The notes: generated by a model from the sequence alone, not told the origin. DNA of 64,000 bases from a virus (UHGV-0020019); one strand, 5' to 3'; shown: positions 10,047 through 56,105, counted from the first letter of the stretch. A program made the numbers and translations.

Positions 10047-10077
10047 AGAATTTACATCATAAGATTTACTGTTTGTG

Positions 10078-10196: not shown

Positions 10197-10224
10197 CAAA
10201 TAAAGAAAATAAAGAAATATAAAT

Positions 10225-12642: not shown

Positions 12643-12671
12643 AAGTGTATAATATATAAAGAGTAGAAGTT

Positions 12672-13223
12672 ATGAAGTTAGTAACTATTGAATCTTTTCA
12701 GCTAAAAGTAGCTGATGAAGCTTTACTTATAAAGCCTATAAGGAAGCTATTTAATCAAGACAGAAGTGCATCCAAGGAGCAATTTTATAAACAGATGTCT
12801 TATCTTTACTTTATGGTAGATCCAAGAAGTACTTACTCTTATATTCTCAATGAAGAAGAGAGAGCTAAGGCTATTATAGAACAGGAAGGACTTGAAAAGG
12901 ACTTTAAGCCCTCTTCTTTATTGGAAGAAGCTATGACAGTATATAAGAAGCATACAGTAACTCCTTCACAGGAGTTGCTTAATGCTGCATTAAAGGCTGC
13001 ACATACAGTAAGTGAGTTCTTGATGAGAGATGATATTTTAGATATGGAAGATGATAAGGGTAAACCTAAATATCAAATCTCTTCCATTACCTCTGCATTA
13101 AAAAATGTAGAAGGTATTGTATCTTCTTTACAGAATCTTCAAAGAAAGGTTGAGAGTGAACTTAGTGAGCAAAGTAAGGCTAGGGGTAGTCAAGAGTTAA
13201 CAATATTTGATGAAGTGGATTAA
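12672..13223 (+). CDS. hypothetical acidic protein (scaffold-like?)
   Basis: ORF in track; charged, helical composition; 183 aa. Confidence 0.45.
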   Translation: MKLVTIESFQLKVADEALLIKPIRKLFNQDRSASKEQFYKQMSYLYFMVDPRSTYSYILNEEERAKAIIEQEGLEKDFKPSSLLEEAMTVYKKHTVTPSQELLNAALKAAHTVSEFLMRDDILDMEDDKGKPKYQISSITSALKNVEGIVSSLQNLQRKVESELSEQSKARGSQELTIFDEVD

Positions 13224-13256
13224 TATAAAGAAAGATTAAATATAGCCTTAAGTACT

Positions 13257-13286
13257 TTGTATATAGAAATAGTTTCTTTATTTTTG
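13257..13286 (+). promoter_or_regulatory. Bacteroides-type promoter: -33 TTTG (13257-13260) and -7 TATTTTTG (13279-13286)
   Basis: TTTG, an 18-nt spacer, then TAnnTTTG, ~17 nt upstream of the 13303 ATG. Confidence 0.4.
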
Positions 13287-13302
13287 CATAAAAATATGAG
13301 TT

Positions 13303-13620
13303 ATGAAGAAGTTAGTATATTTATTTATAATTATGTTTCTTGGTGTAGGATGCTCCCACCAAGGAACTTCTAGTAATGATATTAGTGTTAATAGTGATAC
13401 AGTATATATTGCTCCAGATAGTGTAAGAGATTATTCCTATATTGACTCTATTAATCAGGATTTAAAATGTAGGTCATACGAATTATATGGAGATAGTAAT
13501 TGGCTTGAGGATGGATTACCTGATAATATAATGAGAAGAAAAGGAGATACTCCCCATAAAGATACTTTATGGATGCTGAAAGAAGACACACCTTATCATA
13601 AAACGCCAATAGAGAAATAA
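13303..13620 (+). CDS. lipoprotein (signal peptide + lipobox GVGC|S); spanin-like position upstream of the lysozyme
   Basis: MKKLVYLFIIMFLGVGCSHQG: h-region plus L-G-V-G-C lipobox. Confidence 0.55.
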   Translation: MKKLVYLFIIMFLGVGCSHQGTSSNDISVNSDTVYIAPDSVRDYSYIDSINQDLKCRSYELYGDSNWLEDGLPDNIMRRKGDTPHKDTLWMLKEDTPYHKTPIEK

Positions 13621-21265: not shown

Positions 21266-24200
21266 CTAACAATATTTTTTAAACTCATTAATTGCTTCAT
21301 CAATACTTAAATCTAATCCTTTCTGTTTAAATACATTCTGTAAAAACTTACCAAAGACCTTTTCTCTACCTTTAATACTCTCAGCCTTCTGTAAAGCTTC
21401 CTCCTTACTTAATGTAGAAACCTGTTTCATAATCAAGTCTGCAAATGCTGCAAGATTCTTGATCTCTTCAGTCTTTGTAATAACCTGGCTATTAGAAGTG
21501 CCTTTTACATTAGACTCTTGAGGACTTTCTGTCTTCAAGTCAGAAGCAGAGTTATCTTCAGTAGTCTTGGTAGTATCACTCAATGGGTCTTTGATATCTA
21601 AAGTACTCATCTCTAAGTATTCACCATTGTTACCAAGAGGTTTAATTAACTCAAAAACAAGTTCTTCACCTTTATCAGAAGTAAGATGCCAAAGATAAGT
21701 ATTGTTATTCACCTTAGTCTTCATATAGGAAATACCTGCAAGATCAGCAATATCCTCAGGTCTATAGACAGTCAATCTATTATGCTTAACATCTACATTA
21801 TAGTGAGTATCCTTGCCTCCCTTTCTTGGAACTAGCTTGTTGTTTTCCCAGTTATTTCTAATAAACTGATCAATCACCAAGTCAGGAATTACCTCAGGGA
21901 AGTTCCTATATGTATCAACATAGGTGGCATTACCATTCTTACTCTTCAGCTTTTCCTTTACATAGGTAGGTACCAAAGACATGAAAGTCTTAGGAGAAAA
22001 TCCAATACCAGCTCTAAAGAAACTGTAGTTAAACAGCATCTGAGAAAGCTCTGGGTCTTCTTTATGCAAGTCAATCCAAGCACTGCGAAGTTCTTCCTTT
22101 TTCTGTTCATCCATACCAGTGATATTAATCATAAGATATGGTCTTCCAGTCTTCTTGGAAACATTCATTCTAATAGCTTGAATCAAGGCATTATCTGAAT
22201 ACTTTTCCTTGAACTTCTGTTCCATAAACCACTTAGGAAATTCTGTAGCATAACTTTTAAGATGCTTAGGATTAATCAGACCTGACTGTATCAACAGATA
22301 AGACTGATAGAAGTTAGAGAACTGATCCAAAAGTTTCTTGTCATTATACATCTTATCAGCAATATCAGCAGGAAGATTAGCCAATAGCTTTCTGAAACCA
22401 TTGCTACCAGTAGGCATATCAGAGAAAATAGCCTTTGCAATATCCACAGTTCTTGCAAACTGTTTCAATACTGGATGGTCAAAGAAGATGTCATCAATAT
22501 CAACAGGCATACTATCAACAGTGTAGAAATGAGTACCATTCTCTGTGTTAACATCAATGAACTGAGACATTTTATGCTCAATGATAAGATTATCTACAAT
22601 GAGTGGACCAACAGCACTTGATATAGAATTGAATCTTGTAGCATAAGTAGGCTTACGCATAGCATCAGTAAGACTTCTCATTTTCTGGAAAGCAAGAAGT
22701 ACTTTGTAATCAGTAGCTTCATGTTCCTCGGAAGTAAGACCTTCAACCAGTTCCTCTGTAGTAAGTTCCTCGGTATTAATCAAAGAATCATCATTGATGT
22801 TATTCTTTTCTCTATACTCAGTCAGCCATTTCTCAATGATGTTGGACAAAGATTCATAATTGGTAAGATTCTCTCTATTGAACTTGTTGAGGGTTCTTTC
22901 TATAATATCCTGGGAAAGGAAGAGAGCTGCATCCTCAAATGTCATACCCAATCTAAGCATAGTATTCAGCATACCAGCTGTAGTCATGTTAATATTCATC
23001 AAGTTCAAGATTGGATCTTTTACAGCATCTGCTGAAGCTGATACCAAAGAACCTAAAGTCTTACCAATAAGGTTACCATCTCTATCATACTTCATATCAA
23101 CCTGCATTCTTTCACCAAAGGTAGTACCTGCAATAGTGAAGGGATTTTCTCCACAGATTTCAGATACATCAAGAAAGATGTCATTACTCTCAAGAGTAGC
23201 ATGAGCTACCTTATTTACAGCAAACACACCAATCAATGATGCAGCAGCACTATTCTGCTTATAGAACTGTACCTGAGTATCAGCAAAGGTAAGGTCTTTA
23301 TCTGTATAAGAAAGGTCTTTGAGTTCATCAATAGACATTTTCTGAAGGTCAGACCACTTAATACCCTTGTTAGCAGGATTCTTATAGGCAGCAACCATAT
23401 AACCCATTTTCTTAGGAGCATCAAATCCTCCAGGATTAAGAATCTTATCAGCAGTCATCTGATTAGTGAGTACTGCATAAGTCATATCGATAATCTTGTT
23501 ATCTCTGTATGTTCTACCAGAAGTAGGAGCATCAGTATAATAAGCAACCTGTTGATATTTACCATAAAGCCACTGCATGAATTTATCAGCAGACTTCATC
23601 TTCTGAGGATTGTCGAGGAACATTCTTACCTGTTCACCAACCCAAGTATTGTTGGTCTTACCATCATGTGCCTTCTTATAGCTTTCAGTTGTTATGTTAA
23701 ATAGCTCCTTTTCAATCTCATTTTTCTTTCTTGTCTTGATAGGAATATCCTTACGCATGACATATCTCTTATCAACATCAAAGTCAGAGTCATCAATCTC
23801 AGTAAGCTCATAAGGAAGCATGATAGCATCACCAGCTTCTCTAGGCATGAAACCTACAACCTTCATTGGAGCACAAGAGTACTTATCCTCTGTAGGAATA
23901 CGGTAACTTACCATTTTAAGAAGCTCTGGATCCACAGCATTGATAGCATCTACATTAATAGTACCATCAGCATTGGAGAATTTATCAAAGAGTTCATTAG
24001 ACCAGATAGGAGCAAAGACTTCAAAGTAAGCAATACCACCTTGATTTCTCTTGAGATACTCCTTATAGGAAAGATTATCATGCTCAGAAGCATTATACTC
24101 TTCCTCAAGAGGCATAAGATTACCTTGCTTGTCATTAAATCTGATATGCAACTGAGTAGACATACCAAAGTTAGATACCTGAACAATAGGACCACCAGCA

Positions 24201-27200
24201 ATCTTCTGCTTATTTACTCTGTTCTTAATGATAGAGTTGATAAGCTGTTCAATTCTCTTAGCCTGTATTGGGTCACCTTTTGGTATTCTAAATTCACCAG
24301 TCTCCTTATCAATAGAACAAGCCTGCAAGAGGTCTATTCCATATCTAGGAGAAGACATGATTTCTCTCTGAAGAATCTTGGAAAGAGCAATATTCTGTTC
24401 CTTCTTATCTTCACTGTTGAAGTGCAACTCTGCTGCAAGATTATTAATACTTTCCTCAATGTTGGCAGCAATAGTCTTCTCATACTCTTTTCTAAATTCA
24501 TCAGCCTTTACCTTTCTGTGAGTACCATCAGGTTCTGTCCACTCATAGTAGTTATCTACTTGATTACCATTCTCGTCAGTAGTATAAAGGTCAAGGTCAG
24601 AAGGAGTAATCATTCTAATCTGAGAACCATGAGCCTGAGAATGCTCCTTAAAATGCTCAGGAACTTCTTGCTGCAAGCAGTAGTCTTCATAGGAAGCCTC
24701 ATGTACAAAGGTCTCAGTATTATAGTTCCTATAAACTCTTTCACCTGTAGCATCAGTCTCTTCCTTGAAGATTTGATTCTTCATATAGGTATAGGCAGCT
24801 TCCTCACCACCTTCCATATCTCTGAACTGGAAGATATTCATCTTACCTTGAAGACCAGACTTAATGGCAGATTCAAACTGAACAGTATCAATGCCCTTGG
24901 TAGGATTCAACTTCTCTGAATCTTCCATTACTCTATAGACAGCTCTAAGGAGATTTGGTCTGGAGAGCTTTTCACCTTTAAGGATAGCATCAGCCATAAT
25001 GAGAAGATACTCTGCATTCTTAGCCTGGAAAGGTACTTCCATAGAATGAATAGGAGCATTAGCTACACCCATATCCTTTGTAAGCTTTGAATACACAAAT
25101 GGCTTCAATGGCTGGAATGCTGTCTCCAAGTCAGTATAGTTGTACTCACCTTTCTGTAACTTCTGATAAATATCTTCTGCTTGCTTAGACCATCTACCAA
25201 AGATAAATGCTTTCTTTCTGTAAGATGAAGGAGATGAATATCCCTGAGCATCAGTAACATTAATCTTAGTATACTTACCATCCTTGCCTACAAGAGATTC
25301 CTTAAGAGCCATCATCTGAGCTTTCTGATTCTCTGGAGCAGCAGCAATTCTTCTATCAAAGACCTCTGCAATATTGGCAATGATGTTAGACTTGAAGCTG
25401 TCAAAGTCCTGTAAGATGAATGTTCTATACTTACCATCAGATACTCTGTTACCATTATAATCGGTAGCATAAATGTTACCTCTTACACCTGGAGCATGAA
25501 GCTGTGCTAAACGCTTCTGCAAGTCCTCAGTATCCTTATAGAAAGCAATATCTGTAAGAGTCAGCTGTAAGATATTCTTAGAAGCAAAAGCATCATTCCA
25601 AAGATAATTCTCTACCTGCTTTCTTACCCAGTCAGTAGCTTCCTCATCTTTCAACTCAGAAGGGTAGATACCCTTGATACTCTTAGCTGCTTCCAAAATA
25701 CCATTGTTCTCCCAGTTGTTGAGGATAGACTGAACTCTATCTTCCATGTGCTGACGGATAACTTTATCAGCAAGTTTACCAAGCTCTGCTTCTTCCTCAG
25801 CAGTAAGAGCTACTTCTCCATCTACTTTCTTCTGAAGGAGAGATGCTAATCTATTATTATCAGAAGAGATAGTATTATCTTCATTACGAAGAATATCTCT
25901 CTTGGCAATCTTGTCAGCAGTATTCTCCAGATAGTTATTCAATACAGGAAGGAAGTTAAACCTACGTCCATTGGTATCAAAGTTCTTGATGAAACCTGCA
26001 TCTTTTTTATCCATATTTCTCATTCTGACAGTCTGGATTCTGCTAAGTTCCTGCAAGAACATATTATGAAGACCATAGACAATGGAATCCTTATAGTTTG
26101 CACCTCTATAAGAATAGAACTTGATGAACTCAGATGATGGTTTGTTAGACTGCATAGGTATTCTGAACCAAGCTGGAACCATATTGGTATTATTATCAGT
26201 ACTCTCTGCAAAGTACTCAGTGATAAGGGATAAGGTATATTCTGCATCACTCATATTACGCATATAGTTATGCTTGTTGAAGTTCAACTCTACCTTATGA
26301 TCAAATACCTTACGAGCATTTTCATCCTTAGCAAGTATTCTAAGCCACTCATTTCTCCATCCTTTATCTACATCACCATTTTGGAACTTAAACCATTCTG
26401 AAGAACCATATTCATCCATAATGAAGTCTTCAAATGCCTGACCTTCCTGACGGAATTTATTCATCAGTTTAGTCATAAATGATGGTGTAATATAAGACTG
26501 ATACATCTTGCCACTGTCATAGAATGCATTGACAGCAGTATCTTCCAACTTGTCAGTAATAGGAGTAAGAAGATTCCTCAAACTACCACCAATAGAGTTC
26601 TCTGTTCCAAACTTAAATGGGTCATACTCCTTGAGAGTTCCCTTATTCTGAGACTGTAAAGCCTTATCCAAGTCCTTGACAATATAACCAAGAGATTCTG
26701 TAATCTTCTTAATGTTTTCTGCATTGACTACATCAGTAAGCATTTCCTCTGTGATGTTATAGCCAAAGCTCTTACTGATACCTAAAATGTTATCAGTAGC
26801 AGTCTTTGACATAGTATCATCCAAAGTCTTTCCTTCCTTAATAGCCTTGTCAATCTCTCTCAACTCAGTCAGAGCCTTATGAAGATTGAACTCAGAGTTC
26901 TTTCCTGTAGTCTGGTCAGAACCAAGAAGCTTAGAGTTAATCTTACCATTATTACCAAAGAGAGGATGTTCTCCAATCTTGAATAGGGCAGAGATGGACT
27001 TCATTGCTTCTGAGAGTGCAGGATGACTATTTACAGTCATGCTATAATACTTATCATCTTCAAGCAATACAATAGAATAGAGCTGGAAATGCTTAGAAAA
27101 TACTCCATAGAACTGGCTTTGGAAATCAGTCTCCTTACCACTCTTATCAGAAAGTCTTTCAATAAGCTGGGATAACCAAGGGTTCTGCTTCTGCTTATCA

Positions 27201-30200
27201 GACAATCTCTTAATCATATCATCAAGAGATAATGCTCCCTGTGTCCATCTCAAGATACTATTGACAGACTCTCTAGGATTTACCCTTTCTGCAATTCCCC
27301 ACTTACTATATACCTTGTTACCTTCTGCATCCAGGAGATAGCATTGATGAAGACCTAATCTTACCAAGGCAGACATAGAGTTAAGAACATCAATGGTTCT
27401 AGATTCAACCTGCCAATGTTCCTGCTCATCCTTTTCTCCTTCTTCTGCTGCTATATCCTGATCATTGGAATAGTCATTGAAGTTATCAAAATCTACCTTA
27501 GAGTCTTCTGTGGTAGTAAAGTTACCTCTGCTATAGTCCTTGGTAATACCAAAGCCTTCATTCATAGCAAAGATGTCTGCTGCCAGATACATAATAGCAT
27601 CCCAGTTGTCTGTAATCAGCTGAGCCTGCATCATGGTATCTGTATCCTCATAATCCATTACCTGAGGTGAGAACAGAGTTTTGGTTCTCTCAATAAGTCT
27701 ATCCAAACCTACAGTTTCTACAATCTGCTTTCTAGATGCAGACTGAAAGTCTAGGTCTGTATTGAGGGAAGGGAATAGAGTCTTTGCAAGACCTTCTTCC
27801 TTCTGAAGATTAGTAATCTCATCAGAGATAGAGTTAACTATCAGTTCTGCTGTATGACGAACTTCTGTAGCAGACAGAGAAGCACCAAGTTCCTCTAAGT
27901 CCTTGTCACCATTAAGCAGGTTGTCAATCTGCTTATTAAGCTTATCATACTCACTTAGATTAGTCTCAACTTCTTTCTTCTGAGAATCCTTAGATTCCTG
28001 AAGATACTCTTTCTCACTTGTTGCTTGAAGCACTGTGTCCATTTGATTGATAATGTTTTGATTTTCCTCAAATGAGTTCTCCATAGATAACTGTGCATCC
28101 AATTCCTTTAAATAAGGTATCTTCCAGGTAGCATCTACTGGTGTCTCATCATAGAGGTCATTAAAGTATTCATAACCTGGAAGAGAAACTTTCTGTGTTT
28201 GTTCTTCTGGGAAAGAAGGATTAGTTACTTCTGTTTCAGTTCCTTTATTATCATCAAAGACTATAACATCAGGATTCTTCACTATATATTCTGTGTTATC
28301 TGCCCACATAGTTCCCTTGTCAAGCACAATAACATCAGCTGTAGTGTTTCTTCCATTTTTTACATAGTCTCTAATATCTTTGTAGTGTTCTACTTTTGCA
28401 GTAGAAAGAATATGGAATTTGCTAACTTTAGCATAATCCCCAGTATAGTGTCTATTGATTCTATTGCCTTCTGGATGCTCTGCTGTAGGAGGTTCAGGAG
28501 ATTTATCTGTTCTACTCTTAGCATAATCAGTAGCCTCTTCTTCACTTGATGTAAAGTAGAGTGCTCCCTTAAGAGTTTCATCATAATCTACTGCTGTCTT
28601 TCCTACAGTTTCACCAAGAGTTTTAGCTTCTCTATCTTCCATTAAGGCATATCCTCGATAGATAGTAAGTGGTGATTTACCATCTTCTGAGTATAAACCA
28701 TCTACTTCCTTAGATAACTGACTTAACTGATACTGTTGAGCAGCATCATAAGAGTCTTTATCAAAATGCTTAGGCTCTGCTACTTCATGGTCAACCATAA
28801 ATACAACTTGAGGATTACCATGATTCTTTGCAATATTATCATGGTCATACTCCATATTGTAATCCATAGTTGCAGCAGTATGGAAACCTAAAGTCTTCTT
28901 ATAGATAGCCTGTAATGGCTGCTTTGCACTCATGTAGGCATCAAGATGGGTAGCACCTTCTTCCTTAACCATATCTTTAATAGCATAAAGGAAACCTTTA
29001 TTAGTACTAGGGCTAAGAGAGAATACACTTATCAAATTGCCATCAGGTTCTATAGCAAATCCACATAAACCATCTTCTGTAATAAAGCATTTTGCATTAG
29101 AATAATTATCATGTAAATCTACTAATTCTCCATTAGGAAGATAGATTCTTACCATCTCAAATATATCATGGAATAATTTTCCATCTACTCTTCCTACATT
29201 AAAAGTGCCTACACTATTATCTTTGTTTGTATGGGTTAAATGAGATTGGACGCCATGCCAGCTACCATTGCTGTTGGCTCCCAAGAGTCCTCCCAGAATC
29301 CCTCCGATTCTTTCTTTATCCTCGTCATTAAGTTCCCTTTCTCTGAGCTGAAAGCTGGATACTCCTTTTTCAGAAAATTTACGGCTTCCTTCTTGAACTC
29401 TTCTAAACTCATCTGTTGTTTTGTATTCTTCTGTTCCATTTTCTTTTGAATTTTTATTTTCAGAACGTGAATTACTTGAACTTATTGTATTATCTTTGAT
29501 ATTTTTATCAAGATGTAAAGGAGAGCCTTCTTTCTTGACATTGTTACTAATAATGGTAACAGTATCTGTAGCTCTTGATACACCAACATATTCAAGCTGC
29601 TGCTTGATATTAGCTACTTGATCAGGTTGAGTATTCTTTACTTCTACATCTACATCACTAAGGTCTCCTAAATCAACTTCTTCAGAACTCTTTAACTCTG
29701 CATTGGCTGCATCATTTCTAGTCTCTTCTCCAAGGTCAACCATCTCCATAGCATTAGCAGCATTGTTGTCACTCATAGAAGCCCTAGATACATCTACATC
29801 ATCCATCAGTACATGGGTAAAAGTAGAACCTTGTGACTTATGAATGGTAAGAGCATAGCCAAAGTCAATAGTCTTAGCCTGTAAAAGGTTATGGCTATTA
29901 TCTTCAATGTTATCATTGACAAAGAGGAAAGAATCAATAGCATTAATCTTAGCATAGACTGCTGCCTTAGCTTCTCTACCATAAGCTCTTCTAGCTTCAT
30001 TCCATAATCTCTTCTTCTCATTGGCAAGAATCATGGCACTCTGTCTATTCTGGGCATTGTTCTTAATGTCCATGAAGTTGAATGTATCTATATTACCTAA
30101 TGAGTCTTCAAGAGTAATAGGAACAGCCTGCATCACTACAGGAGTACCATTATCTAATCTGGTCTGTACTGTAGTAGGTCTGCCTACCTGAGTTACTTTG

Positions 30201-33200
30201 TATGATTCAGAATTAATGAATCTATAACTCTTAGTTCTCCATTCATATCCCCAGTTAGCATAACCTGTCATAGGCTCACCTACATGTGGAATAGGAGAGT
30301 CATAACCCAAAAGTTCTCTTACCTGATTATTGTAAGCAGTTACAGCCTTGTTGGTATAAGCTAGGATTCTAAAGTAATTAGGATTCTGCTTCAAGCCTTT
30401 AACATACTTATCAATAACTTCATTGATAGCATCTTGATGCTGAGGAGCAATATATGCAACACCCTCACCTTTACTATTGAATGATGATATCCTAGACAAA
30501 GGTTCTCCATTACGGATAGCTGTAGCTTCCTTAAGGATAGCATTGTCATCTGTTCTCTCTACTTGGGTAAGACGGATGACTTTACCTTCACCATTTCTAA
30601 AGACCTTAGAGATTTTATCCTCATTGACAGGAGCCAGCTGAGCTTCATCACCTACATAGATAATCTTAAGATCCATTTTCTTGGCAATATCATTAAGGAT
30701 TTTATAATTCTCCTCATTGATCATAGAAGCTTCATCGATAATAATGGTAGTTCCTGGCATGATGTCTACATCCTTCAAGACATTTACCAAGTTTCTAGCA
30801 TTATAAGATTTGCTTGAATCTACTTCTACATTGATACCAAACACCTTATTTAATGTAGATGCCTTGAAGCCAGCCTTAGATACTCTGTCATTAAGTACTG
30901 CTGCTGCCTTATTGGTTGTAGCACAGAACATCACAGGTCTATTCTGCTTCTGTCCTTTCTTAGCAATCATCTCCATAAGAGAAGTCTTACCAGTACCGGC
31001 ATAGCCACTAAGAGTCATAGATGTCTCATTGGACTTCATGAATCTATCCATCTCATTGAGAGCATCTATCTGCTGAGCATTTGGCTTGAATGGAGCTTTG
31101 ACAGTAGTACCATCTGCAAATGTAAAGTCTTGAGGCACAGCTTTTCCACTGTGTTTATTATCTTCTGGTACATTGTTTACCAAATCATAATCAGCACTTT
31201 CCTGCTCAATAAGAGACAGCTCATCCTTAAGTTCCTTGCCAGATATAGTACTAACAAACTCACCTGTCTTTGCATAATCTGCAATGTTGTTGTTTGTCTT
31301 AGAGAATGTTCCTATATTATCTGTTGCTGACTTAATCTGATTAGGATTATGAACAACATATATAGTTTGATTCTCTTTCTTATTATCATCAAAACCAGTA
31401 AGGACTATACCATTTTCAGAACCCTTTCTTTTAGATGACTTATTTACTATCTCTCTATAAGAAGTTCCTTGCTTGTGCAAGTCTTCCTTAGTACCATGAA
31501 ACACTTCTAAGTTTTTTATGTTCAAGAACAATGATAACTTGGCTTTTCTACTAGTTAAGAAATTATCCTCACTACCAGGCACAACATTATCTGTGGTAAA
31601 GAATATGGCGTTCTTAGTACCACCTGTCTTTGAGAAGAAATTATCGAACTCTGTGCTAAACTCAGACAGATTTTCATTATCAGTATAATGATAGACAACC
31701 AAAGGTTCTCCATTTTCATCTACTACTTTAGAAACATCTGAAGAATATGCTGGAGTGTAATTAGCCTCAATATCTGATGATTTAATATTACCACTTAATT
31801 TAGCTGTATCTTTAATAACAGATATTTGAGAATCATTAGAATCCCCATAATTTTTCAACAAAGAGTCTTCTGTAATTTCAATTAATCTAGGAGAATACTC
31901 TTTTGTAATGACAGCTTCCTTATATTCTTTATTACCTACATTGAATGTATTTCCATTGGTAGAAATAAATTCAGTTTGAGGCATATCATATATATAAGGT
32001 TTACCATCAATACTCAATGCTGCTACATAGTGAGTTATGATTTTTCCTGTAACAGGACTTTTGGCATTTATTATATTAGTATGGGCTTCAATCCCATATC
32101 TATCCTTTAAGAATGCTTGTATTCTTTGTGCTGTATATTGACATATTCCATTTAAAGGATTTGACCTGTTAACTAAAGTTCCTACTTTTATAACATTAGA
32201 TACGCCTATACTATTAAAACCAAATGGATCTTCTTTTGTAGTTTCTTTTCTTTCTACTGGATGAGACAATATTTCATTAGAAGTAGAATAGGTATTTCCC
32301 AAAGGATCTTTTTTAAGTATATCTACATACTCTCCTGTTCTTTCCCAAGTAGATAAGCCATATTGTCTAGGAGGTGTATATTCCTTTTCCCAATCACCAA
32401 ACCACTCTTTAAAGGCTTTAGTTCTAACTTGAAGCCACTGTCTTTCACTAAGATTAGAGTTCTTACCATTAGGTGCCTTCATAAAGGTACCGTTAGCAAT
32501 AGCTTTGCTCTTTAAAGCTTGTAACTCTTCATTGTACACCTCTCTATTAAAGTCATGAACAATTTCCTTCTTTAGTTCATCATCAGACAGTGTTCTGAAA
32601 TCCCATTCCTTCTCATTATACTCCTTTCTCAAAGGATTCTTGATACCATTATATCTCATATAGGTATCAATATCAAAGGCATCAAGAGCTTTCTCCAAGG
32701 CATTCATTGACCTCTGATAGTATGTATTGGAGGTATGAAGACTAAGAAGAGTCTTGAAGGCATCAAGTACTCTAGACCAGAAAGACTTCTTATCCTTATT
32801 CTGCTTGTCAATCTCTTGAATCTTACTTCTAAAGACAGGATTACCAAGTTCTGCAACAAATTCAAAGACATCAACAATGCCTCTTTCACCCTTTAAGATA
32901 GGATTGGTCTTGAGGTCTTGGTAGAGAGAATTAACTTCTGTACGGAACTCCTGCAAAGCTTCAGGTCTCTTCCAATTCTCAGTCTGATTGGAGAGAGCAT
33001 ACATAGAGATAGAATGAAGTACTTCATGAAGAATGATAGAAGCCTTCATATTGTTCATTATATCTCTTTCAAGGAAAGACTTCTTATAGATGATAGTATT
33101 GCTATTGGTGTATCTACCAATAGTTCCAAAAGGAAGAGATTCATTAAAAGATACCTCAATACCTAAGTCCTTAGCAATGCTAAAGACTTTATCAGCCAAT

Positions 33201-48307: not shown

Positions 48308-48997
48308 TTAAAAATTATACTCTTTATACCATTCTACACCATAACCATAGTGACCTTTGAGAATATCATTTATCTGATACCATAGGTCAGAAGGCATCTT
48401 GGTGTGTGTTCTTGCATACCACGAAGGGTGCTTTATCTTGATAATATGGTTATACTTTGAATTGATGTAAGATTCAAAGCTCTGAGCTTCAGAACCCATC
48501 AGTATATAGACAATACCACTGTCATAGTTAGAGAGATTAGTGAGAAAGGATTTAATGAAAGGTCTCCACATAAGAGCATGAGAACCTATTTTACCTGCCT
48601 GACAGGAGAGTGCTGAATTTAACAACAGCACTCCCTGAGCTTCCCACTTCTCCAAACTGGGGTCAAAGATAATATTTCCATGTGGGCGAGTGAAGTCAAT
48701 AACTGACTCCATAAGAACATCTAAGGACTGTGAATAATTACATTCAAGAGTATCATTAGAGTTTCCAAAGGCTATTCCTGTGGCTGTAGGCTTTCCATTC
48801 TTTATATCTGGGTAAGGGTCTTGACCTATAATGACAGTCTTCAAGTCATGCAATGAGCAGAGTGTAAAGGCTTTGAATATATCCTTTACCTTAGGACATA
48901 TTACTTGTTTTGAATCTATCAATCTCTTGATTATTCTTTCAGCCTCTACTATGTCTACAACCTTACACCAATCTCCAAAATATTCCTGTATAGTCAT
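48308..48997 (-). CDS. ung: uracil-DNA glycosylase (family 1-like)
   Basis: VIIGQDPYPD (GQDPY water-activating loop); 229 aa. Confidence 0.8.
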   Translation of the reverse strand: MTIQEYFGDWCKVVDIVEAERIIKRLIDSKQVICPKVKDIFKAFTLCSLHDLKTVIIGQDPYPDIKNGKPTATGIAFGNSNDTLECNYSQSLDVLMESVIDFTRPHGNIIFDPSLEKWEAQGVLLLNSALSCQAGKIGSHALMWRPFIKSFLTNLSNYDSGIVYILMGSEAQSFESYINSKYNHIIKIKHPSWYARTHTKMPSDLWYQINDILKGHYGYGVEWYKEYNF

Positions 48998-49749
48998 TCT
49001 ATCACTTCATCTATATAGTTTAATACAGTACCAACTAACTCTTCATTGGTAGTAGAGATAGATGGAACATCAGTTTCTTTTATGACAAAAGGACAGTCTT
49101 CTACTAATACCTTTGCCTTCAAATTACAATCACCATTATTAGTCTCATATATTTTACTTCTATAGATAGGAGAATAAATACGAGTTAATGACAAAGTTGT
49201 AGGAATAAGTTTATTAATAATAAATCGTTCTACAGTATTGCTTTTGTTTATAAATACTTCTGGAGCTACCCTAAGTATAGGTTTGATAAACTTATATCTA
49301 AAAGGATTCTGCTCATCATCCCTATATATCTTCTTTAATTCCCATGAGAGCATAACTACAGGCTTGAAGTTTTCATCAAAGATTGCTCCATAAGTTCCAT
49401 AATAGGTTTTTACAGGGTTACTTACAGTAATGAGTTTTCTTAAACGAGCACTTTTATATGATGTTATACAAGCATCTCTAAAACAAGCCTCTACAGATTT
49501 ATATGAAGTATAACTTCCTGTATTCTCCAAGTTTATTACTATTGCATCTATAGGTTTTTTATTTAGAATTTTTTCTGCTACTGTAGAAAGAGAATACATA
49601 GCCATTGTTGGAATTTCAATATTATCTCCTGTTACAGGGATTAGCATGTAAGAAGATTTGCTTGTAAAACTTATTCCTCGATTTTGACTATAACTAGGAG
49701 AATCGAAGGCTTCAAAACAATAAGAAATTGTTGCTTTTAAATCTCTCAT
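48994..49749 (-). CDS. hypothetical protein downstream of the E1-like gene (possible E2/accessory; unassigned)
   Basis: ATGA-coupled to the ThiF-like gene; no recognisable motif. Confidence 0.45.
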   Translation of the reverse strand: MRDLKATISYCFEAFDSPSYSQNRGISFTSKSSYMLIPVTGDNIEIPTMAMYSLSTVAEKILNKKPIDAIVINLENTGSYTSYKSVEACFRDACITSYKSARLRKLITVSNPVKTYYGTYGAIFDENFKPVVMLSWELKKIYRDDEQNPFRYKFIKPILRVAPEVFINKSNTVERFIINKLIPTTLSLTRIYSPIYRSKIYETNNGDCNLKAKVLVEDCPFVIKETDVPSISTTNEELVGTVLNYIDEVIE

Positions 49750-50840
49750 TAGCTTTCAGTTTTAAATATCATATTCTGTGCATCATACTCTGTAAAGAAA
49801 GGCAAATCATAAGGAATGATTGGATTTAAAGTGTTAGCTATGAAGTTCGTAAAGAGATTAACCATTAGGGAGCCAATCATGCAAGCAAGATATGTAGTTT
49901 GCTTCATAGAACATACTGTAGCATCAGCCATAGAATCAGAGAATAAAAATTCTTTCTTATACCTATCAATATTATACTGATCATCTCCTGTAATACAGAG
50001 TATCTGTAAGGTGTCAATACTTAATCTACCATCGAGATATAAGCATTTTTTTCTTTCTTCTTCTGTCTTATCTTTAATATGACCAACCCAAGAACTAAAG
50101 AATGTAGCTCTTGCTCTCATGTTATCAAAGCCACAAATCATAATATCCCCAGGCTCCATATCTGATGTAAATTTACTTTGAACAGTCCATACTTGCCTCA
50201 TAGAAGTATAGTTATAAATCATATCAGCTATTGCATTTACCTTAGATTTACCTATATCATTAATGCTAAATAACTGACCAGCCATATTTACCATCTCTAC
50301 AATATCATCATCATATAGAGTAAGATTTGCAGGAATCATTCTTGCTAACTGGAAAGCTACATTACTACCAATACCTCCAATGCCTGCAACAATGATTCTT
50401 GCTTTCTGTATTTCATTAAACCATTCTGCACCAGAAAATCTAGTAGTAGATTCATCAATGAGAAGAGTAGGGGAGTTAAGGGGAATCTTTGCATCATCAG
50501 GAATACTATTCTCTGTAATAGCTGTAGATTCTTCCTGAGGCTCTTCTTCTTGTATTGTTACTACAGTTTCAGCATCTCTTTCTTGGGCAATATCTACAGC
50601 AACATTCTCTGTATCAATATCATTTCTTTCTCTTTGATTTTCATCATAGGTTTCTTCTCCCTCTGATTCTTCAGAGAGACCATTATCTTCTATAATTTCA
50701 TCAAGTTCTTCATTAGAAAGAGATAGGTTTGTCTCTTCTTCTGAATCAGACTCTTGAGGAGAATTATTAGCATTCTCTTGAGTTATTCCTATATTTAAAT
50801 CTTGGAGAATACCATCAATATTATTCATATTTATATCCAT
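49749..50840 (-). CDS. E1-like ThiF/MoeB-family adenylyltransferase with ~130-aa acidic low-complexity N-terminus
   Basis: RIIVAGIGGIGSNVAFQLARMIPANLTLYDDDIVEMVNMAGQLF fits the E1 Rossmann GxGxxG + D.D.VE.SNL.RQ pattern; later DIMICGFDNMRAR. Confidence 0.8.
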   Translation of the reverse strand: MDINMNNIDGILQDLNIGITQENANNSPQESDSEEETNLSLSNEELDEIIEDNGLSEESEGEETYDENQRERNDIDTENVAVDIAQERDAETVVTIQEEEPQEESTAITENSIPDDAKIPLNSPTLLIDESTTRFSGAEWFNEIQKARIIVAGIGGIGSNVAFQLARMIPANLTLYDDDIVEMVNMAGQLFSINDIGKSKVNAIADMIYNYTSMRQVWTVQSKFTSDMEPGDIMICGFDNMRARATFFSSWVGHIKDKTEEERKKCLYLDGRLSIDTLQILCITGDDQYNIDRYKKEFLFSDSMADATVCSMKQTTYLACMIGSLMVNLFTNFIANTLNPIIPYDLPFFTEYDAQNMIFKTES

Positions 50841-50842
50841 AA

Positions 50843-52084
50843 TTATTCTATAATATTTGTAACAAGAGTTTCATTGTAAGCTTCAATAAACGGATTTACA
50901 TCAATAAACTCCATAAGTTCATTACTCATAGCCTGTGCTATTCTACTTTGAATAATTTCATAGGTTTCAAATAGAACATCAGGAACATCGGAAGTATCAA
51001 AATAATCTAATGTATATTGAATGATGAAGTCTTTCCACTCACTGAAAGCACCGCAGGAATCATGTTCACATTCATAGATACTTGATTCTCCAAATATCTT
51101 TATATAAACATTCTTCATGTGCTTAGTAATCCATTGCTTGAGGTCAAACTTATCAGGATTAATAATCAGGTTACATGTAATCATGTGGACTACAGCAGCA
51201 TGAATCTTCTTAGGGTCTGGCTGCCAATCGTCAATATCAGTTGGATTGAATATGTGGTCATCTTTATAAGTGTACTTCGGAGCTTCTTTGTAAGAAGTAT
51301 CCCCAAAGAGATTTTGTTCCTTAGGTACTGGCTTATAGTTCATCCAATCAAAGAAATGACCTGTAGGAGCTATATTAGATGAATCATAATTATCTTTTTT
51401 TTCAATTGCTTTCTTTTTGGTAATCTCATCAAATCTAGCATCGAGATATTCTAAAGTATTAGGTACTTCATGCCTTTCTACTTCAAGGTCAAAGTATTCA
51501 ATGACTTCTTTTTCTACAACTTTAGTAGTTTCTGTACTATCATGCTCCAGTTCTTTAGAACCTTCACCAAAGAACTCATAAGATGTACCTAACTTTTTGA
51601 CTGTTACTTCTGATTTAGTCTGCACTTTTCTTGTAATGGCTGCATAGTATTTTCCTGCATTATTTACAATAAGAGATACAAAACAGTTCCTTTCATTGCC
51701 TTCTTCTTTCAATGTGTTTAAATCTGTACCACTCGGCTGAGTTGACATCTGATGATGTGAATGAATTAACTGCAAATCACAGTCAAACAGCTCTATATTT
51801 TCAGACATATAAGCAGCTACGTCTTCACTCATCTTAAACTCAGTAAAAGTAGCATTGCCTAAATCCATAGGATAAATATCCTTGCATGTGATTACTAAGT
51901 CATTGTTCTCAAAGGAGCCTTGATGGGTTACAAACAATACCCCAGACCATTCTGTAGTAGGGAATTTTCTGAGTAGATATCTAATTTTCTCTTCTACATT
52001 CTCAGGAACAATGAGTTTATAGGTAGATGACCCTTTCACAAGTAGGGGTAACTTCTTGGTTTCTTCTGTTTTTATTGTATTCAT
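50843..52084 (-). CDS. JAMM/MPN+ (JAB) metallopeptidase, N-terminal domain of a 413-aa protein
   Basis: Exact JAMM motif HxHx7Sx2D: LIHSHHQMSTQPSGTDLN, with upstream Glu (TTEWSG); 3 nt downstream of the E1-like gene. Confidence 0.75.
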   Translation of the reverse strand: MNTIKTEETKKLPLLVKGSSTYKLIVPENVEEKIRYLLRKFPTTEWSGVLFVTHQGSFENNDLVITCKDIYPMDLGNATFTEFKMSEDVAAYMSENIELFDCDLQLIHSHHQMSTQPSGTDLNTLKEEGNERNCFVSLIVNNAGKYYAAITRKVQTKSEVTVKKLGTSYEFFGEGSKELEHDSTETTKVVEKEVIEYFDLEVERHEVPNTLEYLDARFDEITKKKAIEKKDNYDSSNIAPTGHFFDWMNYKPVPKEQNLFGDTSYKEAPKYTYKDDHIFNPTDIDDWQPDPKKIHAAVVHMITCNLIINPDKFDLKQWITKHMKNVYIKIFGESSIYECEHDSCGAFSEWKDFIIQYTLDYFDTSDVPDVLFETYEIIQSRIAQAMSNELMEFIDVNPFIEAYNETLVTNIIE

Positions 52085-53264
52085 TTTTGTATCTGAAATT
52101 AATTGTTCTAAGAATTTTTTGCAGTATGTACATTGCTAAATGACTACTAATAACAGTAGTTAGTGTTGATTCATTATTTTGTTCATTATCAATAATGGTA
52201 GTACGTATTTCCTTACCTTTGAATGTTAGTACCAGTTTATTTTGATAATTATTAAGATTGTTAACATAGGAGGTACTATCTCCATCTTCCGTATAAAATT
52301 TTCCGTTAGCAACCACAACTTGTCTTAATAAACCCCTTGTAAAGCAATTATTTAAATTTTGAGCAGTAGTGCTGAAGTATTTATTATAGAAGTCAATAAA
52401 TGAGTTGCTAATATCAATAATATATTCATAATAAGGCATTCCCCAAGTGAATGTATTATTTATATATCTTAATGATAGATGACCATATTTTAAGTAATAC
52501 TGAATAAATTCTTCTAAGTTGTTATTTGTAAATAGAGAAAGAAATTCCATATTACTTGCATGGCTAAAGTTATAACCTATATATGAAGGAATTTGAGATT
52601 TATTTCCTATAGTTTCCATTCTGTGGTATGGACCACCTGAGATTGATTCTACAGTTACATACATGCTAAGTTCCTGGCAAAATAGCATCCAAGTAGCTTC
52701 ATCATACTCATTATTCAATGTTCCAATAGTACTACGTATAGGACCCCTACCTAAACATGGACTTTGAAATTTTGTGAAGTCATTCTTTGGAATTACATTA
52801 ATGTGGCTATGCATGTAATTACTCATGAATTGTTCTCTTGTATAAGTAGCTCTATTAAGTCTAAAGCCATGGCACTCATAAGGAATTGTACCATCACCCT
52901 GAATTTCAATCTTAGCATAAAGGTCTTTGATATTTACTGATTTATCATATTCATTAGAAATAGTTACTTGTGGCCACCATACATAGATAATGAATCTTTC
53001 ATCTTCAGCTATATTTTTCAGTCCTGCTAATTGCTCTGCTGAAACTTCAAAATGCAGATTAAAGTCTTCTTCTTTATTTCCATTTGTAATATAGGCTTCA
53101 TCACAAATCTTTGCAAATAAATATTCTTTGAATGATGATAATTCTCTTCCTTGTTGAGTCTGTATATCTACAAAATCTTCACCAAAGAATCCCTTGAATA
53201 TATCATAGATACTTAAAGGTTTTTCAAAGAGATGCTGATATAATTGATTTACTGTATATTCCAT
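52017..53264 (-). CDS. hypothetical 415-aa protein, first gene of the E1/JAB unit (overlaps the JAB gene by 68 nt)
   Basis: ORF in track; Cys/His-containing segments (YECHGF, YMHSHINV); no assignable domain. Confidence 0.5.
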   Translation of the reverse strand: MEYTVNQLYQHLFEKPLSIYDIFKGFFGEDFVDIQTQQGRELSSFKEYLFAKICDEAYITNGNKEEDFNLHFEVSAEQLAGLKNIAEDERFIIYVWWPQVTISNEYDKSVNIKDLYAKIEIQGDGTIPYECHGFRLNRATYTREQFMSNYMHSHINVIPKNDFTKFQSPCLGRGPIRSTIGTLNNEYDEATWMLFCQELSMYVTVESISGGPYHRMETIGNKSQIPSYIGYNFSHASNMEFLSLFTNNNLEEFIQYYLKYGHLSLRYINNTFTWGMPYYEYIIDISNSFIDFYNKYFSTTAQNLNNCFTRGLLRQVVVANGKFYTEDGDSTSYVNNLNNYQNKLVLTFKGKEIRTTIIDNEQNNESTLTTVISSHLAMYILQKILRTINFRYKNEYNKNRRNQEVTPTCERVIYL

Positions 53265-53284
53265 AACTTTACTTTAGTTAATTG

Positions 53285-53322
53285 AAAAAATAAAGGGAGC
53301 AGAGACTTATTCTCCACTCCCT
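53285..53322 (-). terminator. putative rho-independent terminator (minus orientation) upstream of the 415-aa/JAB/E1 unit
   Basis: In minus sense: AGGGAG-tg-GAGA-ataag-TCTC-tg-CTCCCT followed by TTATTTTTT; lies after the 53352 stop. Confidence 0.35.
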
Positions 53323-53351: not shown

Positions 53352-54212
53352 TTATACTCCAAGTTCATCAATCATATCATCAATATCATTATCTGTGATA
53401 CTGCCATCAGAAGTACTTACTGAAGGCTTTGGTGCTGTTTTCACTTTAGATGTACCTTTCTCCTTCTTAGCAACCTTAATGAGATAATCAATATCATCCT
53501 TCAAGTCTTCAAGGTCTTCTACAGAGAGTACATCATTATTTACCAACATGGCAATATGAGCATACAAGGAATCTTCTGGAGTATTTATATCTAGATCTGT
53601 AATGATGTCTTCAATATAGTTTGGAAGATTCTCATCCATTTCCTCCTCTTCTTCATCTTTAAGTTCATCAGCTACAGTATCTTCATCTTCTACCTCTGTA
53701 GGCTCTTCATTAAGTGTTTTAGTTATTTCTGAAACAACCCCATTCTGAGCAATGAATACCAGCAAATCACTAGTAGGAACCTGTGTAAAGTTCCTACCAA
53801 ACTCTTCTTTTACTGCATCTTGAAGATTATTATCCTTAATAGCCTGATATGCTTCCTTTCTAGTCATAGTACCAGAAGAAATGTTTTTCTTGGTATTGGT
53901 AAGCAGAATAACCAAGTTATTGGTAGGTTGACCCTTATACATTACATTCTGTGGCAACTGTGTAGCATCATTGAGAAGCTGAGTTTTAGAAATACCTTCA
54001 GTAAAGGTCATATTACTATAGTCAATACCAGCAGCTCGCAAGTCTGCCTTCAATTCTCCAAGTGTTGTAGCACTGGTAGTTATCTTACTTCTCTTCTGAG
54101 TTTTTGTATTTGCGATCAAAATTTCTCTTTCCATAATCTTTGTTTTGTTAATTGAATAATTGTTGTAATTGTTTGAATTGTGTTTTGTCTTCCAAGGCTT
54201 TATAGTGGTCAC
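53352..54212 (-). CDS. hypothetical protein with strongly acidic C-terminal half
   Basis: EDEDTVADELKDEEEEEMDEN...; overlaps the primase gene's 3' end by 65 nt. Confidence 0.5.
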   Translation of the reverse strand: MTTIKPWKTKHNSNNYNNYSINKTKIMEREILIANTKTQKRSKITTSATTLGELKADLRAAGIDYSNMTFTEGISKTQLLNDATQLPQNVMYKGQPTNNLVILLTNTKKNISSGTMTRKEAYQAIKDNNLQDAVKEEFGRNFTQVPTSDLLVFIAQNGVVSEITKTLNEEPTEVEDEDTVADELKDEEEEEMDENLPNYIEDIITDLDINTPEDSLYAHIAMLVNNDVLSVEDLEDLKDDIDYLIKVAKKEKGTSKVKTAPKPSVSTSDGSITDNDIDDMIDELGV

Positions 54213-55152
54213 TAAAGTCTTTCTGACTACCTAGATTTGGAATAATATTAGTAAAGCCAGTACGCTTAGCTAACTTTTCTCCATCTATTCTGCCTGCTTC
54301 GTCAGTATCAAAACTGATAAATATTTTCTTGTATCTCCTTTTTAGTTCATTAATGGCAGTATCAGACATAGAGTATCCTTCGCCCTGTAGACAAATGGTA
54401 GGTATATGTAACTGACAAGAGATAACCAATGCATCCTTTAATGAAGAACAAATTACAACTCTATCACCATATTCAGGAATCTTTGTCCATAATCCTATAA
54501 CAGATGCATCCATCTTGGAATACCATTTATAGCCTTTAGTATTATAGGGTTGATATAACTTTAGTTGTAGTTGTTCTTCCTTTCTTTCTACATAACAATA
54601 AGCATATTTATCTGTAGGGAAAATATACTGTTTACTCTTACCAGTTACTGAATCCTTTTTAGTAATAATCTTATAGGAGACAGGATATATTTCTGCATAC
54701 TTTAGCCATTGCTTTGAGATGCCATAAGATGCCCAGTACTCATAATCATACTCTCTCCAAGGTCTGACCTTAACCTCTAACTTAGTGAGTCGGTTAGCCT
54801 CCTTTCTTGTGAGAGTCTTTATCTGCTTGGGCTTAATTGTTACATTGTCATCCTTAATCATTAACTTACAGATTTTATCCAAAGCCTGATTAAAAGTACA
54901 GTTCCAATACTCACATAGTAAATCAATCAATCCTCCTTGAACATTAGTATCTCCAAAGTCCTTATACATGATATGGTTAGTATTGCTCATATAAATGCTG
55001 AAGGATGGGTGATTGTCAGTTCTTAAAGGAGAGTTGATTACACAAGGGATTTCAGTAATTTCTGGAAACACAGTACATAATACCTGTGTTTCACTGAATT
55101 TACTAAATATCTCTGTCTTAGATATACTGGAAGAAGTTTTACCTACTACCAT
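54148..55152 (-). CDS. dnaG: DnaG-type DNA primase (Zn-finger + TOPRIM)
   Basis: CVINSPLRTDNHPSFS (compare CPFHxEKTPSF), KDFG..GG.IDL, TOPRIM ISFDTDEAGR. Confidence 0.75.
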   Translation of the reverse strand: MVVGKTSSSISKTEIFSKFSETQVLCTVFPEITEIPCVINSPLRTDNHPSFSIYMSNTNHIMYKDFGDTNVQGGLIDLLCEYWNCTFNQALDKICKLMIKDDNVTIKPKQIKTLTRKEANRLTKLEVKVRPWREYDYEYWASYGISKQWLKYAEIYPVSYKIITKKDSVTGKSKQYIFPTDKYAYCYVERKEEQLQLKLYQPYNTKGYKWYSKMDASVIGLWTKIPEYGDRVVICSSLKDALVISCQLHIPTICLQGEGYSMSDTAINELKRRYKKIFISFDTDEAGRIDGEKLAKRTGFTNIIPNLGSQKDFSDHYKALEDKTQFKQLQQLFN

Positions 55153-55187: not shown

Positions 55188-56105
55188 TTAGTCCCAAGGC
55201 ATATCACCACTACCAGAAGCAGTACCTGTTTCTACTGGTGCAGCATTGAGATTAGTTGCCTGTACATTATACTCTGTAAGTTCCTGTACTGCAAACTCTG
55301 TTGAAGCATAAGAACCATTATCCTTAGCATTGGCAAGGTCTTTCTCCAAGCGTGCAAGAGCCTTAGAGCCTGCATAGTTAGGAAGAATCATACCATTACG
55401 TGTAGCAATAGCCTGATACTGCTTACCATCATCTGTAGTACGTACACCATAGAGAAGCTTTACCTTATTGTTAGGCTGAAGAGCAATAGCCTCCTTAATC
55501 TCTGAGAAGTCACCCTTGAAGTAGTCCTTGATATGCTCAAGACCAAATACAAAGTCATCAGTATTCTCCTTCAATACCCAAGAACCATTAACATAGTTAA
55601 AGGCATCACCTACACAGAGATAAGGCTTCAAGAAGCCAATAAGGTCTGCTTCACCTACACAAGCTATACGATAGTCAGGAGCAATCTTTGCAGGATTTCC
55701 ATTCTTAGTAAAGAGAGGTTTACCAGCCTTTGCATCTTCAGCATTAGCCCAAGTAGCATTGCCAAACTTATCAATAACCTGTGCTTTAGCCTGGTCTTGA
55801 CTATATGCAGGAGCATTACGTAGGGTAAACATTACTCTATTAATCATTTCTACACCATTGCAGGTATCTGGGTCTGTCTTTACAATAAATGTAATTCGTG
55901 CTTCCTTGCCATTATCAGTATCTACAACATACTCTGGATCATTAGCAATCTCATGACCATAGATGTCTTCAAGTTCCTTCTTTGTAGGATTTACTGCTAC
56001 TACAAAAGAAGAACCTACACCTACATACTTCTTGAACTCCTGAGCTTCTTTTGACTCCTGTGTCTTGCCAATAGCAAGGAAACTGTAACTATTATTAATC
56101 ATCAT
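55188..56105 (-). CDS. hypothetical protein (possible ssDNA-binding/annealing protein; weak)
   Basis: Sits between primase and ATPase; C-terminus ...SGSGDMPWD; no firm motif. Confidence 0.4.
   Translation of the reverse strand: MMINNSYSFLAIGKTQESKEAQEFKKYVGVGSSFVVAVNPTKKELEDIYGHEIANDPEYVVDTDNGKEARITFIVKTDPDTCNGVEMINRVMFTLRNAPAYSQDQAKAQVIDKFGNATWANAEDAKAGKPLFTKNGNPAKIAPDYRIACVGEADLIGFLKPYLCVGDAFNYVNGSWVLKENTDDFVFGLEHIKDYFKGDFSEIKEAIALQPNNKVKLLYGVRTTDDGKQYQAIATRNGMILPNYAGSKALARLEKDLANAKDNGSYASTEFAVQELTEYNVQATNLNAAPVETGTASGSGDMPWD

Follow-up and report, generated by a model that had tools for sequence, protein, structure and literature searches.

Complete prokaryotic cascades for the conjugation of ubiquitin-like proteins (Ubls), namely Bil, Bub and the Cap2/Cap3 pair of the cyclic-oligonucleotide-based anti-phage signalling system (CBASS), have so far been seen as a means by which bacteria defend themselves against phages. 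In the Type I Bub (6E.1) system, which comprises BubAB, BubCD and BubE, the JAB peptidase of BubCD cuts the BubAB Ubl–E2 fusion directly after a conserved Gly; the chemistry runs through oxyesters, with a Tyr in E1 and Ser/His in E2, and the E1 has no crossover-loop Cys. In the Bil system, BilC pre-processes BilA. On the phage side, the only association of a Ubl with a JAB peptidase described earlier in the accessible literature is the tail-assembly pair of phages lambda and T1. Here we analysed 64,000 nucleotides (nt) of the virus UHGV-0020019, the whole of which is called the window below, and found between its primase and uracil-DNA glycosylase (UDG) genes a locus that is likely to be a phage-encoded, five-gene Ubl conjugation cassette of a Steigviridae-like crAss phage. 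The five components are best read as a Ubl tag, an E2-like carrier, a JAB protease, an E1 activator and a variable partner, P5. In contrast to the bacterial cascades, this set of genes belongs to the conserved core of lytic crAss-like phages.

The initial annotation of the window had proposed a Ubl conjugation or deconjugation unit of four genes around an E1 and a JAMM enzyme. The four open reading frames (ORFs) were recovered where it had placed them, all on the minus strand, at 52017–53264 (415 aa), 50843–52084 (413 aa), 49749–50840 (363 aa) and 48994–49749 (251 aa). The proposal as such gained strength, since both the Ubl and a partner resembling E2 came to light; the unit grew to five genes because the Ubl is the N-terminal domain encoded by the next gene upstream (53352–54134). 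The statement that no Ubl ORF ending in Gly-Gly lies nearby is thus literally correct, but a Ubl domain ending in Ser-Gly is encoded just beyond the region that had been considered. The JAB gene, said to follow the E1 gene by 3 nt, precedes it in the direction of transcription, with a gap of 2 nt. The 415-aa and 251-aa proteins had been offered as candidates for an E2, a target or a Ubl fusion; the former is probably E2-like, whereas the latter is a fast-evolving fifth component and not the Ubl.

The cassette is located in the minus-strand replication region of a crAss-like phage, where the order of genes is that for an SSB-like protein, primase, the five module proteins, UDG, DUF1064, a PD-(D/E)XK exonuclease and a class III ribonucleotide reductase. 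This region is collinear with gp81–gp69 of Bacteroides phage crAss001. The portal protein encoded in the window shares 60–65% identity with Steigviridae portals, and the closest annotated phages share only about 50% protein identity within the module; together these values indicate an uncultured relative of Steigviridae. In GenBank, the five genes are labelled, in order, hypothetical protein, hypothetical protein, metalloprotease domain protein, thiamine biosynthesis protein ThiF and hypothetical protein.

The Ubl domain comprises residues 1–88 of a 260-aa protein (53871–54134, minus strand), has a beta-grasp fold and reads as ubiquitin-like, with the C-terminus ...KKNISSG. The same point reads ...KKIKSG in crAss001 gp79 and ...KQVKSGG in gp53 of FpV4, a distant phage of Flavobacterium; this Ser-Gly end does not vary across 88 loci, and the linker behind the Gly varies between loci from 0 to 5 residues. 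In the model, the tail carrying this conserved Gly is disordered as in ubiquitin, with a predicted local distance difference test (pLDDT) score below 50, and cleavage of the fused form behind the Gly is predicted. A profile search of the Ubl domain against PDB sequences gave no meaningful match. The ORF was first listed as 286 aa, starting from a GTG at 54212 and overlapping the primase gene (54148–55152) by 65 nt. More than 1500 homologues are 259–260 aa long, so we place the true start at Met27, the ATG at 54134; the gene then covers 53352–54134, positions 54135–54212 are dropped, and the overlap with the primase gene is gone.

The part behind the Gly (53352–53870, minus strand), delimited by model segments and alignments, starts with a small three-helix domain (MTRKEAYQAIK...NFTQVPTSDLL), continues through an acidic disordered linker into a helical domain and finishes in a conserved acidic and hydrophobic motif, D/E-I-D-D-M-I/F. 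It has no Pfam match. The three-helix domain gives an impression of SAP/HeH-like identity by its sequence pattern, which has no support from Pfam, and we did not retain this identity. The post-Gly moiety is probably released as a separate protein. In Kolpuevirus hominis (L005, cr126_1, NC_055884, 6492–7418), the variable middle of the fusion protein holds a ribosomal protein L7/L12 C-terminal domain at residues ~158–220. The match to Pfam PF00542 has E 2.6e-12 and exceeds the cut-off; the ribosomal form of the domain serves to recruit translational GTPases.

Natural variants show where the two halves of the fusion meet. In one lineage (L008/L009), the Ubl is a free protein of 89 aa that ends in ...ASGI, one residue past the Gly, and is followed by the hairpin described below and the genes for E2, JAB, E1 and P5, with no post-Gly domain or other fusion partner within 7 kb. 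In three other loci (L007, L068 and L070), an HNH endonuclease gene is placed exactly after the Ser-Gly codons, and the post-Gly part forms its own ORF behind it. In two genera of Steigviridae, represented by IAS virus (Paundivirus) and cr116_1 (Pamirivirus), the Ubl domain, E2, JAB, E1 and P5 are all missing; beside the primase gene stands instead a protein of 82–85 aa beginning with MSRKE, which is the post-Gly domain according to its hidden Markov model (CT-HMM, E 2e-19), has no match to the Ubl model and begins at the predicted cleavage site. Taken together with the variable linker, these cases show that the two halves are autonomous proteins, that their boundary lies exactly after the Gly, and that inheritance and loss of the Ubl go hand in hand with those of the four genes behind it. 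In both module-free phages, genes resembling rIIA and rIIB (PHROG E 1.7e-58 and 1.2e-32; IAS virus, L094, NC_049978, 32600–36060; cr116_1, L095, NC_055882, 3693–8157) take up the remainder of the slot up to UDG, and the whole genome of crAss001, a carrier of the module, is free of rII homologues.

Several observations on the same loci may be added. The inserted HNH gene is of the NUMOD4/HNH_3 type (L007, 7277–7820; likewise in L068 and L070), and a search with Rfam detected no group I intron at the split. In L007, the JAB and E1 genes are also interrupted, by LAGLIDADG genes (9931–13500). These HNH and LAGLIDADG genes may be free-standing endonuclease genes that split host genes. Many Ubl matches of 91 aa looked like stand-alone genes at first sight; by their context, most are the first half of an HNH-split gene, and only L008/L009 are truly free. 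The rIIA-like ORF of IAS virus translates to 732 aa, compared with an annotated coding sequence of 410 aa, leaving about 1 kb unannotated.

The activating enzyme is the 363-aa protein (49749–50840, minus strand), which consists of an acidic extension at residues 1–125 (50466–50840) and a ThiF-type domain at residues 126–363. It contains the E1 Rossmann motif noticed in the initial annotation, IIVAGIGGIGSN...YDDDIVEMVNMAGQ, matches Pfam ThiF (PF00899) with E 1.8e-18 (67 bits against a cut-off of 28), and its family profile finds Uba5, MccB, PaaA and TcdA in PDB. The acidic character of the N-terminal extension was borne out by 38 Asp/Glu against 4 Lys/Arg in its 125 residues. Gly153, Gly155, Gly156, Asp177, Asp179, Asn185, Lys200, Asp239 and Arg244 are invariant and make up the Rossmann GxGxxG, ribose/Mg Asp, Lys and DNxxxR signatures of an E1; Cys310 (49911–49913, minus strand) is invariant as well. 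In PADLOC, the E values of CBASS E1–E2 models go down to about 2e-12, with matches confined to the Rossmann part, while the BilD model gives only 9e-5. A Cap2- or BilD-like architecture, for which the initial annotation had advised looking, was not seen; the protein has a single ThiF-sized adenylation domain.

The 413-aa protein (50843–52084, minus strand) is a JAMM/MPN+ metallopeptidase with its JAB domain at residues ~20–155 (51620–52027) and some 250 further residues on the C-terminal side. As noticed before, it carries an exact HxHx7Sx2D motif, HSHHQMSTQPSGTD (HSHx7SGTD, 51722–51763), to which we add the catalytic Glu45 further upstream (51950–51952). The residues Glu45, His108, His110, Ser118 and Asp121, which form the complete zinc site, are invariant in 61 distinct sequences; loss of the zinc ligands in relatives, which would have spoken against such an enzyme, was therefore not observed. 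The spacing of 63 residues between the Glu and the His is the same as in BubCD. Pfam Prok-JAB gives only a weak match (E 1.8e-4; 21.8 bits, where the cut-off is 25), and the family profile finds Pyrococcus JAMM1 (PfJAMM1, E 1.2e-3) and CSN5 (E 3.3e-3) in PDB. When the JAB was compared with Cap3 and BilC as the initial annotation had advised, PADLOC returned nothing specific, only generic models named 'JAB' with E 2.5e-3 or weaker, which we take to be CBASS-type.

The protein encoded directly behind the Ubl fusion (52017–53264, minus strand, 415 aa) is probably E2-like, as judged from its predicted model and from conservation. The model is confident (mean pLDDT 83), and its order of elements, a helix at 76–87, three long strands, a loop and helices at 176–202, fits a UBC core, which would lie at residues ~76–205 (52650–53039). 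His152-Ser153-His154 (52803–52811) and, sixteen residues on, the candidate catalytic Cys170 (52755–52757) are invariant in 69 sequences; in the model, the motif and the Cys are situated in the loop that joins the last strand to the following helix. This HSH...Cys170 layout probably corresponds to the HPN...Cys active site of E2 enzymes. The fold is more weakly shown than that of the Ubl. Pfam, PHROGs, PADLOC and NCBIfam contain no match to the protein, and a profile search of the family against PDB sequences gave no meaningful one. Foldseek comparison of the model with PDB, a check proposed by the initial annotation, returned nothing significant, which limits the E2 assignment. By hhalign, the core showed no sequence similarity to UbcH5, Ubc9 and Ubc13 (probability 0.07).

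The E2-like family is very large and almost absent from bacterial and archaeal genomes. When its profile was run over 1.8 billion representatives, it recovered 2187 clusters (50% identity) with E ≤1e-3; all 150 matches listed are full-length orthologues, and none links the family to any named family. Among 185,579 bacterial and archaeal species genomes, only four matches occurred, all on contigs of metagenome-assembled genomes (L090–L093, GTDB) whose bins are labelled Bacilli, Agathobacter and Waltera; two of the contigs are 88–111 kb and thus phage-sized, and two are only 4–15 kb. They look like mis-binned phage contigs rather than host genes, and the scan of these genomes revealed neither a bacterial origin nor a bacterial operon context for the family. 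The E2-like and JAB genes overlap by 68 nt (52017–52084) in different frames, the JAB frame being +1 relative to E2, and similar annotated overlaps of 62–125 nt occur in crAss001, FpV4, bajarodcaudo virus and cr126_1.

The fifth component, P5 (48994–49749, minus strand, 251 aa), follows E1 in all loci with enough flanking sequence. No match to it was found in Pfam, PHROG, PADLOC, NCBIfam or PDB, and it contains neither an invariant Ser or His nor a Ser-His dyad that is conserved. Its identity to the window protein is 13–24%, compared with 35–53% for E1, so that P5 diverges about twice as fast. Conservation of the module was surveyed by scanning the models of the five proteins over 89 loci, comprising 80 from IMG/VR together with GenBank phages and metagenome contigs. 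The order primase–Ubl–E2–JAB–E1–P5–UDG appears in essentially every locus long enough to show it, and E1 and Ubl were found in exactly the same 74 phage-collection records. The module spans Steigviridae and the Flavobacterium genus Fipvunavirus. All expected catalytic residues are invariant in 61–73 distinct sequences that share only ~30–50% identity, and hence these motifs are not products of chance.

An intrinsic-terminator-like hairpin with a T-run (53284–53322, minus strand; 12-bp stem with six GC pairs in the scan) stands between the Ubl gene and the E2-like gene. The hairpin proper, at 53294–53322, is a strong terminator-like structure. The initial annotation had seen it and had taken it as the border of the unit; it is present, but it sits inside the unit, between the Ubl gene and the enzyme genes. 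An equivalent hairpin and T-run exist at the same position in nine of nine loci folded, including crAss001, FpV4 and DAC15. This conservation suggests attenuation, by which the Ubl substrate would be made in excess over the enzymes, and the hairpin is probably an attenuator.

Some other features of the window are recorded here for completeness. The 305-aa protein encoded upstream of primase (55188–56105, equivalent to crAss001 gp81) has no Pfam match and ends in an acidic and aromatic tail, ...GSGDMPWD, of the type seen on phage single-stranded-DNA-binding proteins. Two very large minus-strand ORFs of 4151 aa and 1298 aa are present (21266–33721 and 17366–21262), and the corresponding part of the crAss001 genome contains large genes annotated as RNA-polymerase subunits, a comparison of labels made by position only. 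There are no tRNA genes in the entire 64 kb of the window, whereas crAss001 has a tRNA array.

A mechanism may be proposed in which the order of steps follows the experimentally characterised bacterial Bub and Bil systems by analogy. The Ubl would be made as the N-terminal domain of the 260-aa precursor, and the hairpin 3′ of its gene probably raises its mRNA over that of the enzymes. The JAMM domain of the 413-aa protein would then cut after Gly88, freeing a Ubl with a C-terminal Ser-Gly and releasing the C-terminal moiety. The minimal, ThiF-sized E1 would adenylate Gly88, possibly with a thioester on Cys310, and the Ubl would be handed to the invariant Cys170 of the UBC-like 415-aa protein and attached to one or more targets, probably on lysine. 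The choice of target probably resides in the non-UBC domains of the E2-like protein, in the fast-evolving P5, or in both, and the C-terminal domain of the JAB protein is a further candidate for specificity. The JAMM enzyme may also reverse the modification. We infer all of these chemical steps, as well as the nature of the target and the biological purpose, from the predicted enzymes and their conservation. The strict synteny across the family, combined with the full set of E1, E2 and Ubl, points to conjugation rather than deconjugation alone.

Some of the observations weigh against this cascade. The Ubl ends in Ser-Gly and not in Gly-Gly, and cleavage of its fused form is itself a prediction. 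In E1, the ATP-contacting Arg of the NLxRQ motif, which ThiF and MoeB have and with which PaaA and MccB also align an Arg, is replaced by Gly188 (50277–50279) in the motif NMAGQ, and this Gly is invariant in 73 sequences. The C-terminal half of E1 matched no solved E1 in the profile search of PDB, and the assignment of Cys310 as a crossover-loop cysteine is for this reason a positional guess. In addition, neither an E3 nor a target was found, nor could a function be assigned to P5 or to the C-terminal domain of the JAB protein. Arg272 of E1, in a DGR motif, is also invariant and might compensate for Gly188. Gly188 and the HSH motif of the E2-like protein may mean that the chemistry of the cascade departs from the textbook.

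The GenBank name 'thiamine biosynthesis protein ThiF' implies a sulfur-carrier pathway, in which a Ubl thiocarboxylate would donate sulfur to the modification of a cofactor, tRNA or DNA. We regard this as highly improbable. The scores of E1 with the NCBIfam models of ThiF and MoeB are far under their cut-offs (best 76.8 against 159, and 39.5 against 449, respectively), and the module and its neighbourhood contain no rhodanese, cysteine desulfurase, PP-loop protein, ThiG or MoaE; the combination named in the initial annotation as pointing away from conjugation, a sulfur-transfer partner of the rhodanese type with neither Ubl nor E2, is thus the opposite of what was found. The module never lacks a UBC-like protein bearing an invariant Cys, and its Ubl is joined to a large protein of unrelated type. 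This fusion leads to another explanation, that the Ubl is only a removable N-terminal chaperone or expression partner that matures its replication-module protein in cis and is never conjugated in trans. In most lineages the Ubl is indeed fused to a conserved protein encoded beside primase, and that protein persists alone where the module is absent. Yet such processing needs a protease only, while E1 and E2 are always kept with intact active sites, and lineages with a stand-alone Ubl, having no partner within 7 kb, still keep E2, JAB, E1 and P5. A tag acting only in cis therefore seems improbable to us.

A role in counter-defence is somewhat easier to imagine, but we still consider it unlikely. 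The JAMM enzyme would strip host Ubl tags of the Bil/Bub type or reverse Cap2-type priming, and the phage Ubl, E1 and E2 would serve as decoys or competitors. Since bacterial Ubl systems act against phages, a phage antagonist is plausible; rIIA/rIIB-like genes, well known for protecting phages from exclusion by prophages, stand in this slot in two genera of Steigviridae and are absent from crAss001, and P5 evolves fast, as host-facing proteins often do. However, a deubiquitinase alone would suffice for this purpose, yet the catalytic residues of E1, E2 and Ubl are invariant across very divergent phages. Moreover, the genes form a fixed syntenic core block in about 90 loci, in contrast to the patchy distribution typical for anti-defence genes, and the JAB protein resembles neither Cap3 nor BilC beyond the generic JAB models.

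For a conjugation cascade of the phage itself, two observations on purpose point in different directions. Its fixed place in the core of the replication region across very divergent phages, together with the fusion of the Ubl to the protein encoded next to primase, suggests a housekeeping role in the infection cycle. The clean replacement by rIIA/rIIB in two genera and the rapid evolution of P5 suggest a role in host interaction or anti-exclusion. A far-reaching version, which we put forward only tentatively and hold to be rather doubtful, is that an abundant family of human-gut phages, including the cultivable crAss001 and DAC15, has a complete and active Ubl cascade, produces the modifier in cleavable fusion with a protein of the replication module, marks proteins of the host or the phage early in infection so as to shield or reprogramme the infected cell, and can exchange this cascade for rIIA/rIIB. 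If this version holds, the equation of bacterial ubiquitination with anti-phage defence would be reversed, and a possible handle on the long-obscure function of rII would be gained.

Our results can be followed up directly, because carriers of the module are cultivable: crAss001 on Bacteroides intestinalis and DAC15 on B. thetaiotaomicron. The exchange of the slot with rIIA/rIIB gives a genetically testable hint at the biological purpose. The crAss-like phages rank with the most abundant viruses in the human gut. The widespread mis-annotation of these genes as 'thiamine biosynthesis protein ThiF', 'metalloprotease' and three 'hypothetical proteins' is corrected here. A further gain is a highly divergent E2-like family, which counts more than 2000 clusters at 50% identity and is all but missing from bacterial genomes. 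We found no paper linking crAss-like phages or Crassvirales with Ubl systems in the open full-text literature, a scope outside which many subscription journals lie.

Among the described systems, Bil agrees with the cassette in its four functions and in their gene order (Ubl, E2, JAB peptidase, E1), and no E3 is encoded; moreover, behind the conserved C-terminal Gly of its Ubl stand additional residues, which are taken off by the JAB. However, BilD is a tandem E1 of IAD-AAD-CYS architecture, whereas the core of the phage E1 is one domain of ~230 aa (FpV4 gp50 is 228 aa in all). PADLOC models of BilA, BilB and BilC found no match among the four ORFs scanned, the 260-aa Ubl protein lying outside that scan, and BilD gave only the faint match mentioned above. 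The phage cassette also differs by its residence in lytic phages, its extra fifth gene and the fusion of its Ubl to a large C-terminal protein. With Bub, the E2-like His-Ser-His motif invites comparison, as it recalls the Ser/His catalytic pair of BubB. Yet an invariant Cys marks both the E1 and the E2-like protein of the phage, in contrast to the oxyester residues of Bub, as far as chemistry can be read from sequence alone; the phage genes are unfused, unlike BubAB and BubCD, and the phage Ubl is fused to a protein that is not an E2. P5, for its part, has no match to DUF6527, the family of the Bub serine protease, or to any other Pfam family, and has no conserved Ser-His dyad.

Type II CBASS, in which Cap2 is an E2–E1 fusion acting on a CD-NTase and Cap3 is the JAB, differs in that its E1–E2 models match the phage E1 over the Rossmann segment only, the phage E2 and E1 are separate proteins, the phage encodes a true beta-grasp Ubl, and no CD-NTase or effector is found in the conserved phage neighbourhood. 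The pairs of ThiF/MoeB with ThiS/MoaD share an E1 domain of the same size and fold class and a beta-grasp partner ending in Gly; they are set apart by the family cut-offs, under all of which the phage E1 falls, by the E2-like and JAB proteins, by the missing sulfur-transfer partners and by the change of the canonical Arg to Gly. In the tail-assembly pair of lambda and T1, TAPI (Ubl) is linker-fused to a C-terminal domain, with a cut predicted at the last Gly, and TAPK is the JAB. This pair, however, has neither E1 nor E2, belongs to a tail-assembly module and has no detectable sequence relationship to the cassette.

Outside prokaryotes, ubiquitin itself is made from UBA52 and RPS27A as an N-terminal fusion to an unrelated ribosomal protein and is released by a deubiquitinase. 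The likeness to the phage fusion is one of analogy only, since fusion partner and lineage are unrelated; it nevertheless makes the cassette a parallel, in viruses of prokaryotes, to the ubiquitin fusion precursors. The cassette lacks defining features of each prokaryotic family; it is a member of neither Bil, Bub nor CBASS, and is not a thiamine-type ThiF, but is best classed as a new, phage-specific variant of the prokaryotic Ubl systems.

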